A stretch of 30,815 bases of DNA from an uncultured archaeon (lineage in GTDB: Archaea; Asgardarchaeota; Lokiarchaeia; Sigyniarchaeales; SOKP01): assembly GCA_964493715.1 (NCBI GenBank), contig CAZBPC010000035.1, positions 1 through 30,815 on the forward strand. The letters are read 5' to 3'. How positions within the stretch are numbered: the first letter of the stretch is position 1; each line of letters opens with the position of its first letter. Shown in pieces: positions 7,900-15,835 of the stretch. The notes below the pieces were generated by a model. The model saw only the letters and a program-made list of their open reading frames with translations. It searched no databases and was not told the origin of the DNA. A program made the position numbers and the translations under genes.

Positions 7900-9003
7900 T
7901 TAATATTTTGAAGGAGTTTTTGATTTTATTTTTGATTTTGGTGGAATCTTCGCCCTCATTAGAGATTTTTCAAGCTGTTTTTTTTCACTTAAAAAGCGAG
8001 CTTTATCTTTTTCAAGTTTTTCTCTTTCTCTCTTTATTGCATTCTTTTCATCATTTATATTGGACTTTTCTTTTGCTAATGATCTTTCAGAATCTCTGAT
8101 TTCTGACGCAATTTTTGCTCTTTGGTTGTCCAAACGTTTGATCTCTGAGTTTAATTTTTTTATTTTATCTTCTGAGTCCTTTATCTTATTTTGATTGGAG
8201 TAGAATTGATTTTCGTATTTTGGAATCTTATTATCTAGTTCTTTAATCCTTGAATTAAGATTTGATTTTTTTCTTTCCAATGATTTTAAATCCTCCTGAG
8301 ATTTATTTCTCTCTTTGTCTAAATTTTCACGCTTTTTTTCAACATCTCGAGCCAAAGATTTTAATTCGGTTTTTTTAATTCGATTTTTGTCTCTTTCTTC
8401 AAGTAATTTCTTTTTCTCCTCTTTAATCCTATTTTTTTCATCAGAAATATTTCTATTCAAATCATTAATTTCTCTTTTGAGGTTATCCCTAATTCTTGTT
8501 AAATCATTTACTTCATTCCTTAAATCCATTAATCTATCTTCTAAATTGTTGATCGTTCTTTCAATGGCACTTTCTCTTCTTTCCATACCTGGGAGTTTTG
8601 TTTTAATCTGTTCTATCCGGTCTTCTACCTTTTCTTTTTCGATTCTCAGATCTTCTTTCTCTTGATCAATATTTTCTTTGATTCTTTCCAATTTTTGTTT
8701 ATATTGTTTGCTTTTTTTAATATCATCATTAATTTTTTCCAAATCCCCTTTTAGGTTTTCATTTTGTTCGGTTAGATTTCTAAGTTCGAATTCTTTTTCT
8801 TTTCTCTTCTTTTCAATATTTTCAATATCGGTGTCATAATCTTGAAGTTTTTTCACAACTTTTTCCCATTCCTCTTTTTCTCTATTTAATTTAATTCTCT
8901 CCTCTTTTATTTTCCTAAGTAATTTTGGATCTGATAATTCACTTGACTCGTCATCAGGCGTTTTTTCTCGAATTTGGTGTTTGGGAATAGGTTTTTCATC
9001 CAT
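7900..9003 (-). CDS. Long coiled-coil protein
   Basis: About 320 aa of continuous K/E/R/L-rich heptads with short Pro-containing ends; no Walker A motif or TM segment. Confidence 0.8.
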   Translation of the reverse strand: MDEKPIPKHQIREKTPDDESSELSDPKLLRKIKEERIKLNREKEEWEKVVKKLQDYDTDIENIEKKRKEKEFELRNLTEQNENLKGDLEKINDDIKKSKQYKQKLERIKENIDQEKEDLRIEKEKVEDRIEQIKTKLPGMERRESAIERTINNLEDRLMDLRNEVNDLTRIRDNLKREINDLNRNISDEKNRIKEEKKKLLEERDKNRIKKTELKSLARDVEKKRENLDKERNKSQEDLKSLERKKSNLNSRIKELDNKIPKYENQFYSNQNKIKDSEDKIKKLNSEIKRLDNQRAKIASEIRDSERSLAKEKSNINDEKNAIKREREKLEKDKARFLSEKKQLEKSLMRAKIPPKSKIKSKTPSKY

Positions 9004-9156: not shown

Positions 9157-9576
9157 ATGGATTTTGATGAAGAATTCGATGATGAATTTGACGAAGATTT
9201 CGATGAAGATCTTGACGAGGATTTAAGTGAGGATTCAGAGGATTTAAATGTACCAGCAGATAAAAAAACTCTTGATGAAGAACCTAAATCTAAAGCTCCA
9301 AGCCTCACCCCTGGAGGAGAAAAAATATCTGTATTTTTTATGTCAACTATAGGGCCCGGTGAGAAAAAACAGAAATTATTAGTAAACACCGGAAATACTT
9401 CAGGAGCAATAAAAGAAACCGTAGCTAATATTTTTGGATTAGATCCAAATGATTTTCATTTATCTACAGGGGGAGTGACATTAGATGAAATGTCTACGCT
9501 AAGAGATTATGATATTAAAGATGGCGATGATATCTTATTAATTCCGGCGAGCACTGCTGGTTTATATTTTATATAA
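9157..9576 (+). CDS. Ubiquitin-like (beta-grasp) protein 1, long acidic N-terminal tail, C-terminus -PASTAG-LYFI
   Basis: Ubiquitin-like pattern IKETVANIFGLDP..FHLSTGGVTLDEMSTLRDYDIKDGDDILLI (compare ubiquitin [23 protein letters not shown]); 52/81 identical to 11402..11737 by manual alignment. Confidence 0.85.
   Translation: MDFDEEFDDEFDEDFDEDLDEDLSEDSEDLNVPADKKTLDEEPKSKAPSLTPGGEKISVFFMSTIGPGEKKQKLLVNTGNTSGAIKETVANIFGLDPNDFHLSTGGVTLDEMSTLRDYDIKDGDDILLIPASTAGLYFI
9160..9231 (+). repeat. Six imperfect 12-bp tandem repeats encoding [DE][FL][DS][DE]
   Basis: gattttgatgaa gaattcgatgat gaatttgacgaa gatttcgatgaa gatcttgacgag gatttaagtgag = DFDE EFDD EFDE DFDE DLDE DLSE. Confidence 0.8.
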
Positions 9577-9583
9577 TTTAAAT

Positions 9584-10381
9584 TTATTTTCTTTCTTTTC
9601 TTGATGGAATAATAGCAATTTCGTCATCATCATCAATATCATATTCTTTAACTTGAGATTTTTCATTTAATAAGATACCTCCCGATGAAAGTACGAAATC
9701 CACTTGCTCGTAATCAAACAATATTCCAATACTATCTTTAAGCTCTGCTATGAAATCTGATTTTTCAATAATAATTATTTTTGTTTTCTCGCCCGGTTCA
9801 AGAAGAGATCTAATATAAACACGTAATTTGTTTTCTATTCCAAAAGGGGTTATTGCTGGAGAAAATTTGAATGGTTCGTTAGATGCATTTTGATATTTAA
9901 TCATCTCATCAATTAATCGCTTTCTTTCAGCAGCTTCAAAATATATCATTTCTCTCAAAAAAAAGATCTTATCCATTTTTGATAATTTTAATTGATCTAT
10001 CTTATGTAATTCTTCTTGATCAAATTCTGTGAAAATAAACTCATCGATTCTTGATATATCTTCATAAGATTCTTCTGAATTTGCGTATTGATCGATTAAA
10101 GGCATAGCCTCGAAGTAATCCTCAATAAGTTGAGGGAGTGTTTGGCTAAATGTTTTCTTTTTTGGAGGATATTTAACTTTTGTTGAAGTAAACTCTTTCG
10201 AACTTTTATTAGATTGAACAACTGTATAAATTGTGCTAGTTGACAAAACAGATACGCTAGATATTGTGATAAACATAAAAATTGGAAAATTATCTATCTC
10301 CAAAAGGAAGAAAAACAGGTATATAAATGCAAAAATGATATAAAGAGATATAATCAAATATACTCGATAATTTTTCTTCAT
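9584..10381 (-). CDS. Membrane protein (2 N-terminal TM helices) with C-terminal ubiquitin-like domain lacking the terminal Gly
   Basis: Hydrophobic segments at about aa 7-28 and 33-55. The last ~82 aa align without gaps to the neighbouring Ubls (PGEK, LF, FxLSSGG, KEYDI, IAIIP; 26/81 identical to Ubl2) but end in SRKERK. Confidence 0.8.
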   Translation of the reverse strand: MKKNYRVYLIISLYIIFAFIYLFFFLLEIDNFPIFMFITISSVSVLSTSTIYTVVQSNKSSKEFTSTKVKYPPKKKTFSQTLPQLIEDYFEAMPLIDQYANSEESYEDISRIDEFIFTEFDQEELHKIDQLKLSKMDKIFFLREMIYFEAAERKRLIDEMIKYQNASNEPFKFSPAITPFGIENKLRVYIRSLLEPGEKTKIIIIEKSDFIAELKDSIGILFDYEQVDFVLSSGGILLNEKSQVKEYDIDDDDEIAIIPSRKERK

Positions 10382-10464: not shown

Positions 10465-11136
10465 TTAATCTCCAAAAATTAATTCTTTTAATTTATAATA
10501 TTGTTGAATATCCAATTTGAATAGTATTCTTTTTTTATCCTTTTCAATTTCAACTAATTGTAAATTGTGTAAGATTTCTAAATATTTTTTAATCGTATTG
10601 TAATTTTTCTTAAGTTTATTTGAGATATCCGATACTTTTAGTGATTCATTTTGATCTAACATAAATTCAATTATTTGTTGGACAATTTCTTGGTTTAAAT
10701 AATAATATGATTCATCTAATTCTGGATTTGAATCATAGAGGAAAACAATCCGTTGATTTCCAATATCTCTTGAACGCGTGAACTGGAACTTTTCTAAGCA
10801 TGATAGATGCCAGAGAGCTTGATTGCTTCCAATATTAATAGCTTTCATAATTTCATTAATATTTGAAGGATTTTTTTTTATATAGTTAAAGATTTCATTT
10901 CTAATAGGATGTTCAATGATATTATTTTTCATTAATTTAGTTCCAGGAATTAACCGTCGTTTTTTAATGAGATCTTTAATAGTTTTTTCAATTTTGTTTT
11001 TATTTAAATAAGGTTTTGCACGCGTCCTATTACTTATATAACCTACTATGTCTTCAATTGAAAAAAAAGGTTTTTTCTTTAAATATTCTTTAATTAAGCT
11101 GAGGATAAGAGGTTCGACCTCTTCTGGAATGCTCAT
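10465..11136 (-). CDS. Tandem winged helix-turn-helix (ArsR-like) transcriptional regulator
   Basis: HPIRNEIFNYIKKNP-SNINEIMKAINIGSNQALWHLSCLEK and LKVSDISNKLKKNYNTIKKYLEILHNLQLV: two wHTH units plus a helical N-terminal domain. Confidence 0.82.
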   Translation of the reverse strand: MSIPEEVEPLILSLIKEYLKKKPFFSIEDIVGYISNRTRAKPYLNKNKIEKTIKDLIKKRRLIPGTKLMKNNIIEHPIRNEIFNYIKKNPSNINEIMKAINIGSNQALWHLSCLEKFQFTRSRDIGNQRIVFLYDSNPELDESYYYLNQEIVQQIIEFMLDQNESLKVSDISNKLKKNYNTIKKYLEILHNLQLVEIEKDKKRILFKLDIQQYYKLKELIFGD

Positions 11137-11401: not shown

Positions 11402-11737
11402 ATGAGTTTTGATAACAACGATTTTGACGAGGAATTAGAACCAGTTAAGTCTAAAACCCCATCAAGTAAAGTACCCTCGACAGGAAAAAAGGTGACTCTG
11501 TACTTCATGTCTACCATTGGTCCTGGTGAAAAGAAAGAGAAACTGACCGTAAATGACGCGAATCAAGTAAATGATATCAAACAGACTTTAGGAAATTTAT
11601 TTGGTCTTGATCCAGATGAATTTCATCTCTCTTCTGGTGGAAGAACAATGGATGAAAGTCATCAATTAAAAGATTATAATGTAAGTGATGGCGACGATAT
11701 TCTATTAATCCCGGCGAGCACAGCGGGATACTTTTAA
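11402..11737 (+). CDS. Ubiquitin-like (beta-grasp) protein 2, acidic N-terminal tail, C-terminus -PASTAG-YF
   Basis: GGAGTGA RBS at 11390-11396; beta-grasp pattern ending GGRTMDESHQLKDYNVSDGDDILLIPASTAGYF; first gene of the E1-E2-JAB-RING run. Confidence 0.88.
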   Translation: MSFDNNDFDEELEPVKSKTPSSKVPSTGKKVTLYFMSTIGPGEKKEKLTVNDANQVNDIKQTLGNLFGLDPDEFHLSSGGRTMDESHQLKDYNVSDGDDILLIPASTAGYF

Positions 11738-11814: not shown

Positions 11815-13050
11815 ATGGTGATATTATTGACTAAGGAATCAGATTTTTTTGCTAAAGGAATGTCGGCAGAGGAAAGAGATTTGTATGATCGTCAATTTCG
11901 TCTGGAAGGTTGGTCACAAAAATTAATTAAAAACTCCAGAGTACTAATCGTTGGAGTGGGAGGGTTAGGTTGTGAAATTGCTAAAAATTTAACCATGTTA
12001 GGTGTTGGTCATATAGATCTCGTTGATTTAGATATTATTGAACATTCAAATTTTAACCGGCAGATTCTTTTTATTGGAGCAAAATTAGGAGAACCTAAAG
12101 CTATCGCAGCTGCTAAAAAATTAAAAGAAATTAATCCTAATATCACAGTAAAAGGATATCATACATCCTTAGAAAGACTAAATCCCTCCTTATACTATAA
12201 TGCAGATGTTGTTGTTGGAGGTCTTGATTCAATGAATGCGCGATTAAACTTGAATGCTCAATGTGTCCGATTTAGAAAACCATTAGTTGATGGAGGAGTA
12301 TCTGGTTATCATGGTCATATTTATACTATTTTTCCTTATCGAAATGCTTGTTATGAATGTAACCCACTACCTATTTTAGAGAATGATGAAATGGCAGCCT
12401 GTACTGTGGTTGGTATCCCTCGTAAAAGGATTCATTGTCTATTTAAAGGAGATATGGTATTCAAAGAAAAATTTGACAGGGATCCAAATCCCAAAAATAT
12501 AAATGATATAAAGTTTATTCAAAAAGTCTCAAATGAATTAGTTAATACACATAATTTCTTACCTGAATTTACTGAAGATGATATTGTAAAAATTATCGAT
12601 CGTCATGATGCAGGAATCATTACCATTAATTCAGTTATTTCTGCAATGCAATCTCATGAAGTAGTGAAGATCATTCACTGGAAAAAAGGGAATAAGGGAT
12701 TAGGAGAGCCTTTAACAAATTATGTTATATTCAATGCGATGACCATGAAATTATACCATATTGAAAAGACAAGAAATCCAGATTGTATTCAATGTGGGAA
12801 AAATGTAAGAAGAGTTGTGATAAAAATGAAACCAAATTCCTGTTGCTTGAATATAATAAAAACTTTAGAAAAAAATGGATTTAAGTTGGAATCGGAGCTT
12901 GAACCATTAATAACCTTATTAGATTTTAATGATATCACGATAATAGATCTAGAAAAGAGCGTTGCAGAAAACAACTTAAGAAATTACGAATTTTTAACAA
13001 TTGCAGGATTTATTGGGGGAGAAATTTATGTTACCCTTAAATTGAAATAA
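11815..13050 (+). CDS. Ubiquitin-like activating enzyme E1 (ThiF/UBA family, Uba3/Uba2-like)
   Basis: LYDRQFRL, VLIVGVGGLGCE, DLDIIEHSNFNRQILF, Zn pairs CYEC and CIQC, catalytic segment AACTVVGIPRKRIHC. The true start may be the TTG at 11827 behind GGTGAT. Confidence 0.92.
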   Translation: MVILLTKESDFFAKGMSAEERDLYDRQFRLEGWSQKLIKNSRVLIVGVGGLGCEIAKNLTMLGVGHIDLVDLDIIEHSNFNRQILFIGAKLGEPKAIAAAKKLKEINPNITVKGYHTSLERLNPSLYYNADVVVGGLDSMNARLNLNAQCVRFRKPLVDGGVSGYHGHIYTIFPYRNACYECNPLPILENDEMAACTVVGIPRKRIHCLFKGDMVFKEKFDRDPNPKNINDIKFIQKVSNELVNTHNFLPEFTEDDIVKIIDRHDAGIITINSVISAMQSHEVVKIIHWKKGNKGLGEPLTNYVIFNAMTMKLYHIEKTRNPDCIQCGKNVRRVVIKMKPNSCCLNIIKTLEKNGFKLESELEPLITLLDFNDITIIDLEKSVAENNLRNYEFLTIAGFIGGEIYVTLKLK

Positions 13051-13108: not shown

Positions 13109-13636
13109 ATGAGTATAAGAAGTAGTCGTGTTTCCCGAGATTTTGCTGGGCTAAAGAAAATGGTAAAAGATGGAAGTATTGTTCAATTAAAACCGTTTAA
13201 TCCAAAAAATAAGAGCATTGATCACTTAGCTATTACAATTAAAGGACCTAAAGGAACATCATATGCAGGAGGGTTATTTAAATTAGAAATGAAATTTCCT
13301 GCACAATATCCTAATCAACCACCTTTCGTAAGAATGCATACACCAATATGGCATCCTAATTTTTGGCCAAAACCGAGTGAATATAAGGGACAAAGAAATA
13401 TTTGTTTAGCTTTAGTCGATCCTTCCTTAGTAGGCAAAAAAGGGGGTTGGAGCCCTTCAAAAACAGCAGGTACAATTGTACAAGCAATAATTGCCATGCT
13501 AAATACTCGAGGTAAATATGTAAATCCAACTGATGTTTTTAACAAAAAGGCAGCAATAGAAATGATGAAGGATCAAAAATTATTTGAGAAAAAAGTTAGG
13601 GTTTTAGTAAAGAAATACGCAAAGGATAAGTGGTGA
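13109..13636 (+). CDS. Ubiquitin-conjugating enzyme E2 (UBC fold)
   Basis: IKGPKGTSYAGGLFKLEMKFPAQYPNQPPFVRMHTPIWHPN...NICLALV...WSPS. Confidence 0.93.
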   Translation: MSIRSSRVSRDFAGLKKMVKDGSIVQLKPFNPKNKSIDHLAITIKGPKGTSYAGGLFKLEMKFPAQYPNQPPFVRMHTPIWHPNFWPKPSEYKGQRNICLALVDPSLVGKKGGWSPSKTAGTIVQAIIAMLNTRGKYVNPTDVFNKKAAIEMMKDQKLFEKKVRVLVKKYAKDKW

Positions 13637-13640
13637 ATTT

Positions 13641-14438
13641 ATGAAAATTGATGAAAAGAATAGCGATATAATAAGAGATGCAATAAAACAAAAAATAAAA
13701 GACAAAATTAAAAAAGAAATTCTTGAAGAAGTATACACTGAATTACAACTTGAAGAATTACAAGAAGAAATAACGGCTGAAATATTTGATACGAAACCGT
13801 TAGACCATTCAGAAGGGATCAAAAAAAAATTAGAACCAATTCCAATGGAACCTGTAATAACTATAGCCAAAAGTGAAAAAATTGAAGCAAAATTACAAAT
13901 AACTGTAAAAGCTATCCTTAAGATTTCAAGTCATTCGTTGAAATACGCGAATTCTAAAATTAGGAAAGAGAACTGGGTTGAGGTGATAGGGTTACTCTCT
14001 GGTAGATATGACAATGGAATACTTTACTTAGAAGATGCATATCCGATGGGCCATGGCACTGCAGTATATGCTGAGATTAAAGATTATAATAATTTTACAA
14101 GAGCATATGAAGATATAGTAAAAAGTAAGCAATTTATTTGCGGATGGTATCATTCTCATCCCTCATATGGATGTTTCATGTCAAGAGAAGACTTAGGGAC
14201 TCAAAGGAGATATCAGAAATTTTGGGATAAATCAGTTGCTCTAGTAATTGATCCATATCAAATTAATGGAAAGTCTTTAGGTTTTGAGATCTATCGTGCG
14301 AATTTTAATACAAAAAAATGGTTTTCCGTGCCATTTGATGTAAAAGGAAGTTTAGATGTAAGAATGCTGCCCGAAATTTTGGAATTCATGAATCCTATTA
14401 TTGAAGGTAAAGCTGCATACTTAGAATATGATGAGTAA
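13641..14438 (+). CDS. JAB1/MPN+ (JAMM) metalloprotease, Rpn11/CSN5-like
   Basis: EVIGLL plus GWYHSHPSYGCFMSREDLGTQ (E...HxH-x7-S-x2-D) and ALVIDP. Confidence 0.93.
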   Translation: MKIDEKNSDIIRDAIKQKIKDKIKKEILEEVYTELQLEELQEEITAEIFDTKPLDHSEGIKKKLEPIPMEPVITIAKSEKIEAKLQITVKAILKISSHSLKYANSKIRKENWVEVIGLLSGRYDNGILYLEDAYPMGHGTAVYAEIKDYNNFTRAYEDIVKSKQFICGWYHSHPSYGCFMSREDLGTQRRYQKFWDKSVALVIDPYQINGKSLGFEIYRANFNTKKWFSVPFDVKGSLDVRMLPEILEFMNPIIEGKAAYLEYDE

Positions 14439-14467
14439 AGAAACATCTTAATTGGTGAAACTAAACC

Positions 14468-15625
14468 ATGGTAAAAAAAAAACAGAAAGCGGTTGCAATT
14501 ATTCTTTTTATCTTTTTTATAATTGGTGTGATTCATGGTTTAATTTCAGCTTCATTAAATAATTTTTTAACTTGGTTATTAGTTGGATTGTGGTTAATGT
14601 TTACAATTAAACTATATAATAATATCAAACGGCACCGTGAGTTTAATTCTCCCCATAATACTGCTTTTTTTGTGATAATTCCTTTATTAATAGGAGTATT
14701 TTATTCTATCTGGGGATCCTATACAGGAATTTTAGGTGAAAATATGATACTAGGCTCTAATTTCTATTTTAGTTTATGGAGTCTCATATTTGGTTTACCT
14801 TTTGTGATTTATGGTTCACACTCAATTTATCGGTGTTTTAAAAAATATAATGTTATATATTTTGGTACCAAATCAGTGAAAGCGAAGGGATTAGGCTATA
14901 TTTTGGCAATTTCAGTTATTATTGCAATCATTTCTTATTGGATTGCTTTTTATAGTGTGAGTGAGGTTTATTCACCATTAACACCACTTCGTTTTTCACT
15001 GGATCTTAACCTTTTACTTCTACTCATTATCACCATTTTTAACCTAATCATTTTTGGATTTGTAAGTAACCGTTCCAATATACCAGAATTGACGCGTGAT
15101 TATATCGCACAACGTACCAGACGAATTAATAGCTTAACTACTCCCTCAACACAGAATTATGGTACTAGCACAAGAAGTCGAACTGTCCAAACACCAACAA
15201 CAACCAGAACAACGACACGCACAACCACCACTAAACCCAGACCTAGAAATAAACCGACATCTCAATCTCGAAGTACAACAACAAAAACAACTAAGTCCGT
15301 TCAATCTCAAGGAGTAAGAAGTGCCCCAAGAATTAAAGATTTTAGTAAATATAAGCCCAAAGGTTCATTTCTCTCCGAAGACGACTTCAAATGCATTTTC
15401 TGTTTTAGATTACCTACACTTTCTAATGATAAAAACAGAGGAATTGTAATTTGTCCAAACTGCAGATATCCAGCTCATGCTGATGAATTTAAGGATTGGA
15501 TGAAGACTTCAAACCTTTGTTCTCGTTGTAGTGCTCCAATACCATCTGGTTTTAGGCGAAATCCTCGAATTATCACAACAAAAAATTATATTACTATTTA
15601 TACCCATTTTTTAAAGCGCAAGTAA
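14468..15625 (+). CDS. Polytopic membrane protein (about 6 TM) with Thr/Arg-rich linker and C-terminal RING-like domain; putative E3 ligase
   Basis: Six hydrophobic segments in aa 1-200; TPTTTRTTTRTTTTKPRP linker; C-x2-C-x16-C-x2-C-x4-H-x2-E-x3-W-x6-C-x2-C at 15392-15529; GGTGA RBS. Confidence 0.78.
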   Translation: MVKKKQKAVAIILFIFFIIGVIHGLISASLNNFLTWLLVGLWLMFTIKLYNNIKRHREFNSPHNTAFFVIIPLLIGVFYSIWGSYTGILGENMILGSNFYFSLWSLIFGLPFVIYGSHSIYRCFKKYNVIYFGTKSVKAKGLGYILAISVIIAIISYWIAFYSVSEVYSPLTPLRFSLDLNLLLLLIITIFNLIIFGFVSNRSNIPELTRDYIAQRTRRINSLTTPSTQNYGTSTRSRTVQTPTTTRTTTRTTTTKPRPRNKPTSQSRSTTTKTTKSVQSQGVRSAPRIKDFSKYKPKGSFLSEDDFKCIFCFRLPTLSNDKNRGIVICPNCRYPAHADEFKDWMKTSNLCSRCSAPIPSGFRRNPRIITTKNYITIYTHFLKRK

Positions 15626-15835
15626 AATAGAGATTTTGTTCAAACTCGAAACAAAACAGCAATACATCACAACTTTCAACTCCGCATTTTCACGCTAAAA
15701 TCTATCCCAACGCTTTTTCAATCGATTCTGTTAATTTTTGATAATATTATCATATACCTTATTTAATAGGAAAAATATATAAAAAAATAAAATTCATATT
15801 TATTTATAAATTCAAAAGTAAAAATGTGATTTTAA

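Follow-up and report, generated by a model that had tools for sequence, protein, structure and literature searches.

Within a 30,815-nucleotide (nt) stretch of DNA from an uncultured lokiarchaeon (hereafter the window; assembly GCA_964493715.1, contig CAZBPC010000035.1), two genes encode ubiquitin-like proteins (Ubls), here called Ubl-1 and Ubl-2, that belong to the ubiquitin family and carry an invariant Ala-Gly pair near their C-termini, followed by a few further residues. Genes for an E1 activating enzyme, an E2 and a JAB-type metalloprotease follow Ubl-1 in a conserved operon (Table 1). We think it probable that Ubl-1 and Ubl-2 are protein tags, conjugated once the JAB protease has trimmed whatever lies past the glycine, and that the residues trailing it are accidental. 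Both proteins end in DGDDILLIPASTAG, after which Ubl-1 adds YF and Ubl-2 adds LYFI. The original prediction had read this from the sequence, and the open reading frames (ORFs) and a BLASTP comparison (58/95 identities, or 61%; E 2e-42) bear it out: the likeness between the two reaches the glycine and stops there. The genome has a third paralogue, on contig C25, whose end is PASTAG-IF.

The Pfam family PF00240 matches Ubl-1 (E 7e-8, 32.6 bits) and Ubl-2 (E 9.7e-6, 25.7 bits), both above the cut-off of 25.4 bits. Where the ubiquitin family is defined by a C-terminal Gly-Gly, these proteins retain the terminal Gly and have Ala in place of the penultimate one. AlphaFold2, run with a family alignment, places a beta-grasp fold at residues 30-104 of Ubl-1 with a predicted local distance difference test score (pLDDT) of about 85-90 by block and about 88 for the core as a whole, and models the preceding arm as disordered (pLDDT below 50 over the first 16 residues; mean of 61 over residues 21-30). 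In a Foldseek search, the best matches to this model were structures of Caldiarchaeum ubiquitin (6fno_D, E 3.9e-8, and 6fj7), followed by ISG15, ubiquitin, NEDD8, SUMO and Hub1. VIA comparison gave Z scores of 13-14.3 to ISG15, ubiquitin and NEDD8, and laid ubiquitin 1-76 on model residues 31-111 with Z 13.0 and a root-mean-square deviation (rmsd) of 1.9 Å over 76 residues. Prediction and both structural comparisons agree with the beta-grasp fold originally proposed and, as modelled, the Ala-Gly proteins have a ubiquitin-type fold that can be superposed on ubiquitin itself. Because phmmer pairs ubiquitin residues 14-70 with Ubl-1 residues 47-103 without a gap, P104, A108 and G109 fall at ubiquitin positions 71, 75 and 76. 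On this alignment, the end of Ubl-1 is the ubiquitin tail with its penultimate Gly replaced by Ala.

This end is invariant across a large family. Of the 820 candidates from a word-indexed protein search, 817 passed E ≤ 1e-3, with the source names Promethearchaeota and Hodarchaeota, and an exhaustive search of representatives at 50% identity gave 568 matches at E ≤ 1e-3 and 147 at 1e-10. All 120 of the nearest database proteins among the matches listed end in IPxxxAG plus 0-4 residues; 34 stop at the Gly, and 86 have 1-4 extra residues (YF in 38, RLI in 10, YI in 7, and others). With one genome scanned per species, 174 relatives emerged. Of these, 80 loci were kept for locus counts, and IPxxxAG is present in 136/136 family ORFs of these loci. 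The stop codon follows the Gly directly in 98 of the ORFs, and tails of 1-7 residues follow it in 38. In an alignment of 39 members that reaches down to 42% identity, no variation occurs at A108 or G109 (nor at T38, G40, P41, T62, L69, G80, L101, I103 or P104), and nothing past G109 aligns. Conservation therefore ends at the Gly, as had been claimed, and the tail is variable; but the hallmark of the family is Ala-Gly, both residues being invariant, and not the single Gly that the claim had singled out. A match at E ≤ 1e-10 is present in 120 of the 299 genomes sampled from the phylum; the taxonomic family to which the window belongs has one in 58 of 66 genomes, and several other families have none (for example, 0/76). 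The 80 kept loci all carry titles of Asgard metagenome-assembled genomes (MAGs) with one exception, contig DATKTW010000176.1 (locus L011), which is filed under a ‘Nanopelagicaceae bacterium’ MAG, contains a complete Asgard operon with a tag 93% identical, and probably reflects a binning error.

To understand the origin of the tails, the codons that follow the Gly can be compared in 139 genes (the 136 locus ORFs and the three copies of this genome, two in the window and one on C25). A stop codon comes next in 98 (TAA 67, TAG 19, TGA 12), and otherwise the codon is mostly TAC (11), AAA (9), TTA (4) or AGA (3). In most species the operon copy reads GGx TAA ACT TAT ATA ATT TTC TTC ATA, and the Ubl-1 gene, GGA TAC TTT TAA ATA ATT CTT TTC ATA, can be aligned with the 3′ untranslated region (UTR) of these tail-less orthologues. 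The YF tail thus reads as an ancestral TAA stop changed to TAC (Tyr), with the new stop two codons on; the RLI and KLI tails read as the same UTR translated once the stop codon has lost one T, and the TFK tail as the product of a 1-nt loss at the Gly/Tyr junction. To judge by their codons, the tails are accidental read-through of an AT-rich 3′ UTR and have no designed function, and it is because read-through enters AT-rich DNA that they consist of Tyr, Phe, Ile, Leu, Lys and Asn. The earlier idea that aromatic tails mask the Gly fares accordingly: the tails are aromatic in this genus (YF, LYFI, IF) but not elsewhere (K, N, RLI, KLI, CFE, LN and others), and in place of a mask there is UTR sequence exposed by stop-codon damage, 98 of the 136 locus genes encoding the mature end directly. 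That tails nonetheless persist, with all three Ala-Gly copies of this genome bearing one, suggests that residues past the Gly are removed or are at least harmless.

The company that these genes keep is that of a ubiquitin-type conjugation system. The closest relatives of the E1 in the Protein Data Bank (PDB) are UBA2, UBA1 and UBA3 at about 120-125 bits (UBA3 over residues 35-361), with UBA5 at about 60 bits. Those of the E2 are Ubc15, Cdc34, UBE2T, Ubc9 and Ubc13, and the JAB protein comes closest to the Rpn11 homologue of Caldiarchaeum (6fjv, E 5.9e-16), with Rpn11 and CSN5 next. The E...HxH...S..D motif residues of the JAB protein are invariant across 21 orthologues. At locus L015:5351-6148 the tblastn range of the orthologue contains one in-frame stop, which may point to an error in sequencing, to a frameshift or to a gene that is broken. 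At 60 of the 80 loci the tag gene is followed within 400 nt by an E1 gene, and these operons contain an E2 in 57 cases, a JAB gene in 53 and a membrane zinc protein in 51, several loci ending inside the operon; upstream, a winged-helix gene is present in 59 and a membrane Ubl gene in 56. The remaining 20 loci hold stand-alone tag copies like that on contig C25.

These features can be joined into a mechanism. The operon E1, being UBA3/UBA2-like, would adenylate the terminal Gly at its free carboxylate and form a thioester, after which the UBC-type E2, with the RING/U-box-like membrane protein, would transfer the tag to lysines of target proteins; the Rpn11-like JAB would undo the conjugation. 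In Ubl-1 we infer that the carboxylate used is that of Gly109 and that the precursor is cut directly after it. Since all three Ala-Gly copies are tailed (YF, LYFI, IF) and the E1 step needs a free Gly carboxylate, trimming past the Gly would have to come first, most likely by the operon JAB, on the precedent of Caldiarchaeum pro-ubiquitin. That protein has nine residues past Gly-Gly, and E1 does not activate it before they have been removed by the Rpn11 homologue (PMC5654768); the cut made by this enzyme, CsRpn11, falls exactly after the Gly-Gly motif (PMC6043591). A helarchaeial pro-ubiquitin with a 4-residue tail past its di-glycine is described as conjugated in vitro (bioRxiv 10.1101/2023.07.25.550441). 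Tails arise whenever a point change or the deletion of 1 nt destroys the stop codon after the Gly, so that a few codons of 3′ UTR are translated, and such accidents would persist because a resident protease renders them harmless.

A complex model of JAB residues 80-265 and a zinc ion with Ubl-1 residues 28-111 is consistent with this. Its score was 0.84, against 0.09 for the best of three controls, relative to a mark that was reached by 58/80 solved complexes and 2/110 mismatched pairs and whose calibration is only approximate here, our own alignments and a riding zinc having been used. At least 97% of contacts agreed between runs, with a partner pLDDT of at least 89. In the model, Ubl-1 residues 37-42 (an invariant loop) and 101-111 (the tail) contact JAB residues 114, 116-117, 171 and 181-184. 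The proposal that the Ubls are pro-proteins matured by the adjacent JAB is thereby upheld in part: all three copies are pro-forms if they are conjugated at all, and the JAB is a plausible protease for them by precedent and by the model.

Several points weigh against conjugation after trimming by the operon JAB, beginning with the approximate calibration just given. A like complex, that of CsRpn11 with Caldiarchaeum ubiquitin (CsUb; 6fnn), has already been solved, so the score may reflect likeness only, and the model would then speak for resemblance to that pair and not for binding of this Ubl by this JAB. Replacement of Gly77 of CsUb by Ala, the counterpart of the natural Ala here, made processing by CsRpn11 much slower, and Cys79Glu and Gly80Trp, which place bulky residues just past the cut, blocked cleavage (PMC6043591). 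With Tyr, Leu or Ile after the Gly in the present proteins, the pocket of the Loki JAB would have to differ. Given both the penultimate Ala and the bulky next residue, the JAB and E1 of the Loki system must be adapted to them, unless the trimming is done by another protease. Other candidates are at hand, as the genome contains five JAB-family matches, five ThiF-family matches and two E2s, so that another protease or E1 could serve. What the analysis shows is membership of the family, the predicted fold, the fixed Ala-Gly, how the tails came about and a conserved operon; conjugation, the cut past the Gly and the choice of protease are inferences.

Some of these same points would fit a scheme in which the tags are conjugated through their Gly but trimmed by another JAB-family protease or an unrelated one, the operon JAB acting as a deconjugase only. 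The five JAB-family matches in the genome speak for it, as does the behavior of CsRpn11, which is slow with a penultimate Ala and blocked by bulky residues past the cut (PMC6043591). So too does the operon count: 98 of 136 genes need no trimming, yet a JAB is present in 53 of 60 operons, which suggests that its conserved job is not maturation. We nevertheless regard this scheme as unlikely, given that the operon JAB is nearest to the one archaeal enzyme for which both activities have been demonstrated, that the complex model puts Ubl-1 residues 101-111 at the JAB catalytic residues, and that in the loci surveyed no other protease showed linkage to the Ubl genes. A more radical alternative is that the tailed copies are never processed. 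Hub1 acts non-covalently as a ubiquitin-like binding module, and the tailed copies could be modules of this sort or inactive, Ala-Gly being kept for binding. The adjoining membrane Ubl domain without a Gly points to non-conjugated uses of the fold at this very locus. We judge this quite improbable. In 98 of 136 genes the stop falls exactly past the Gly and nothing beyond the Gly is conserved, poly-Ubl precursors are known, and the conserved E1-E2-JAB operon beside the gene would be left intact but without a substrate, all three copies being tailed.

The original prediction further suggested that these proteins may be an intermediate class of single-Gly modifiers, akin to UFM1, ATG8 or the MoaD/SAMP type and apart from ubiquitin. 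One terminal Gly and a short propeptide are indeed what they have, and the P-x4-G spacing was offered as a likeness to UFM1, although it is also ubiquitin’s own. PF00240 matches 39/39 members, and UFM1, ATG8, ATG12 and URM1 are not among the 24 Pfam families listed for these 39 at E ≤ 10, a listing from which the HMMER filters discard most matches above about 0.1. No UFM1 chain stands among the 49 Foldseek, 50 VIA and 60 phmmer rows listed, an absence that is no proof; the structures that lie closest are those of ubiquitin, archaeal and eukaryotic, and of ISG15 and NEDD8. UBA2, UBA1 and UBA3 give the E1 about double the score that UBA5 does, the E2 is of the UQ_con family and the protease is an Rpn11-like JAB. 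With the Pfam result and the E1, E2 and JAB relatives all of ubiquitin, NEDD8 or Rpn11 kinds, we rejected a UFM1-like, ATG8-like or intermediate class and hold it to be highly improbable. The SAMP/MoaD/ThiS type was also set aside, ThiS matching only 2/39 members weakly (best E 0.013) and a conserved E2 being present. That the proteins are sulphur carriers of the ThiS/MoaD/Urm1 type, with the E1 serving thiocarboxylate formation and no tag involved, would be in keeping with those two weak ThiS matches and with the membership of the E1 in the ThiF superfamily. It is scarcely credible beside an operon that conserves a UBC-type E2, a RING/U-box-like protein and an Rpn11-like JAB, an E1 that aligns to UBA3 over residues 35-361, past the adenylation core, and a genome that has MoeB/ThiF-sized E1s besides this one, as well as a Gly-Gly Ubl on contig C58.

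Table 1. Features of the window around the Ala-Gly tag genes; positions count from the first nucleotide of the window and aa stands for amino acids.
Feature	Position	Strand	Description
Coiled-coil protein	7900..9003	-	367 aa; Lys/Glu-rich; C-terminus KSKIKSKTPSKY at 7903-7929
Ubl-2	9157..9576	+	139 aa; paralogue of Ubl-1 with a longer acidic arm; KSKAP motif
Ubl-2 end		+	PASTAG, Gly codon 9559-9561; LYFI 9562-9573; stop
Membrane-anchored Ubl protein	9584..10381	-	C-terminal Ubl domain of the same family as the tags; PF00240 on aa 195-255; end IIPSRKERK
Winged-helix protein	10465..11136	-	ArsR/TrmB-like; Pfam HTH_5 E 5.8e-9; transcribed divergently from Ubl-1
Ubl-1	11402..11737	+	111 aa; aa 1-29 acidic arm, predicted disordered; aa 30-104 ubiquitin-type beta-grasp (predicted); P104-A-S-T-A108-G109; Y110-F111; stop
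K-S-K-T-P motif	11447..11461	+	Ubl-1 arm, aa 16-20
Ala108-Gly109 codons	11723..11728	+	Invariant end of Ubl-1, in register with ubiquitin Gly75-Gly76
Tyr-Phe tail	11729..11734	+	TAC TTT in Ubl-1; then TAA 11735-11737
E1, ubiquitin-activating enzyme	11815..13050	+	411 aa; Pfam ThiF E 2.6e-59
E2	13109..13636	+	175 aa; canonical UBC fold; HPN...C active-site region; Pfam UQ_con E 4.8e-26, 91.5 bits
JAB/MPN+ metalloprotease	13641..14438	+	265 aa; Pfam JAB E 4e-13; E114, H171-S-H173...S181..D184 intact
Polytopic membrane protein	14468..15625	+	C-terminal Cys/His zinc domain

The other genes of the locus fit around this core. The zinc domain of the polytopic membrane protein has the pattern C-x2-C...C-P-x-C...H-A-D-E-F-x-D-W...C-S-R-C, invariant in 28 orthologues. 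It has no Pfam RING match, and its AlphaFold2 model (pLDDT 78.5) draws Foldseek matches that are nearly all RING or U-box proteins (RNF8, Ring1b, HRD1, CHIP), at weak values (best E 9.3e-3); on this model it is a candidate RING/U-box-like membrane E3. The membrane-anchored Ubl protein shares the type of beta1-beta2 loop found in the tags. Neither it nor its homologue P0267 has the terminal Gly, so that it is presumably not conjugatable. It adjoins genes that include the RING/U-box-like membrane protein, and looks like a non-conjugatable Ubl placed at the membrane. The winged-helix protein is likely a regulator. No RNA run was listed as holding the locus; of 24 DNA runs that contain part of it, 7 with at least half of its words, most bear the label salt marsh metagenome.

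The coiled-coil neighbor ends in I-K-S-K-T-P-S-K-Y, which is the motif of the N-terminal arms of the tags (11447-11461 and about 9286-9300). In related loci, 45 of 46 Lys/Glu-rich neighbor ORFs end in IK-[S/T/A]-K-x-x-S-x-Y when judged by eye and 28 of 46 by a strict pattern, some having two or three tandem copies of the motif. SKTP occurs in the arm of 120/120 nearest homologues, and a looser form in 30/39 diverse members. Genome-wide, K-S-K-T-P is found nine times in ORFs of at least 50 residues where composition predicts about one, a rough comparison in that the ORF set includes spurious frames. The I-K-S-K-T-P-type motif may be an acceptor or docking motif.

Elsewhere, the family takes other forms. 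Database representatives include poly-tag genes, P0121 with three units and P0122 with two, in which each unit ends in IPHSTAG or IPFSTAG and is followed by the acidic arm of the next; with every unit ending in Ala-Gly, cleavage after every Gly would be needed. A HerA-like ATPase, and proteins that combine Cdc48N and vWA domains, have the Ala-Gly tag domain at their C-termini (representatives P0140, P0167 and P0186). The C25 copy (C25:6483-6815; locus L005:1366-1707) stands alone, downstream of a 405-residue protein with a small-GTPase-like P-loop region. Other parts of the same genome hold further conjugation-type genes. Contig C14 (locus L086:2370-2879 and 14177-15760) has a second UBC-type E2 (169 residues) and a larger second E1 (527 residues), about 11 kb apart, and no tag gene was seen near this pair among ORFs of at least 60 residues in 18 kb. 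Contig C58 (locus L001:1444-1707) has an 87-residue ubiquitin-family protein of a different tag type, with a Gly-Gly-Phe end, and a 250-residue ThiF/MoeB-like gene about 7 kb upstream of it.

These findings have implications for how such tags are recognized. We found no paper that describes an Ala-Gly or single-Gly end on Asgard or Loki Ubls, in a search of main texts, and supplementary alignments may show such ends; nor did the main texts searched mention the motif of the arms or tails that derive from stop codons. The existence of a large and conserved branch with an Ala-Gly reactive end, present in 120 of 299 genomes and in 58 of 66 of its own family, implies that the Gly-Gly rule is not fixed. 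The branch would offer an E1/JAB pair naturally suited to a penultimate Ala; in Caldiarchaeum this replacement cripples processing. There are also practical consequences. The last Lys before the end of Ubl-1 is K90, so trypsin would leave a 19-residue remnant (D91-G109) and not di-Gly, and both proteomics based on the di-Gly remnant and filters for a GG motif would overlook the modification. The earlier contention that GG-based searches miss the class is right for a literal GG filter and wrong for homology searches, which do find the family. The tails are, in addition, a case of tolerated damage, in which a resident protease appears to make the loss of a stop codon bearable.

The separate Gly-Gly-Phe Ubl on contig C58, with the extra JAB, ThiF and E2 genes, makes insulated channels a reasonable idea. 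In its fullest form, which we put forward as doubtful and speculative, Ala-Gly together with a co-adapted E1 and JAB would define a channel insulated from the Gly-Gly tag of the cell and from its remaining E1 and JAB enzymes, with I-K-[S/T]-K-T-P-S as its own acceptor or docking site. If the motif is an acceptor, chains would be built on the arm of the tag and not on lysines of the globular domain, and the coiled-coil neighbor would be a built-in substrate. If both parts hold, the tag fusions on HerA-like ATPases and Cdc48N-vWA proteins would be whole enzymes to be ligated to targets.

Comparison with known systems places these tags among the ubiquitins. With UFM1, UBA5 and UFC1 they share one terminal Gly, bared (here presumably) by loss of a 2-residue propeptide, and the P-x4-G spacing given in the original prediction; they differ in having no UFM1 profile match and in their E1, E2 and protease of ubiquitin, NEDD8 and Rpn11 kinds. 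With eukaryotic ubiquitin, NEDD8 and the C-terminal domain of ISG15 they share the fold (Z 13-14.3, rmsd 1-2 Å over 73-79 residues), the length of the tail and its register, and the two systems have in common a UBA3/UBA2/UBA1-type E1, a UBC-type E2 and genes for poly-tag precursors. In contrast to the eukaryotic proteins, to which identity is about 20%, the archaeal tags have a longer beta1-beta2 loop with an invariant S-T-I-G-P-G, a penultimate Ala and an N-terminal arm, and the units of their poly-tag precursors are parted by acidic spacers where eukaryotic units run head to tail.

The ubiquitins of Hel-, Heimdall- and Odinarchaeia come from the same phylum and work with the same kind of cascade (PMC9192718; bioRxiv 10.1101/2023.07.25.550441); these ESCRT-linked ubiquitins are described with a conserved di-glycine, whereas the window has Ala-Gly and no ESCRT neighbors. 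In Caldiarchaeum subterraneum (PMC5654768, PMC6043591; PDB 6fj7, 6fnn, 6fno, 6fjv), a ubiquitin-fold tag with a short propeptide is likewise clustered with a compact E1, a UBC-type E2 and an Rpn11-like JAB. Its cluster also has a small RING finger protein, to which the candidate membrane E3 of the window may correspond, and this operon supplies both the best structural match for Ubl-1 and the best sequence match for the JAB. Its tag ends in Gly-Gly where ours has Ala-Gly, the G77A form of CsUb being a poor CsRpn11 substrate (PMC6043591). The Loki system differs further in the acidic arm of 30-60 residues with K-S-K-T-P, in its three tag paralogues and a non-conjugatable membrane copy, in the placement of the RING-like domain on a polytopic membrane protein, and in tails of 0-7 residues that are unstable and usually absent. 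The system in the window thus belongs to the known archaeal ubiquitin-operon kind, of which the fixed Ala-Gly, the motif in the arm and tails that stem from altered stop codons are variant features.

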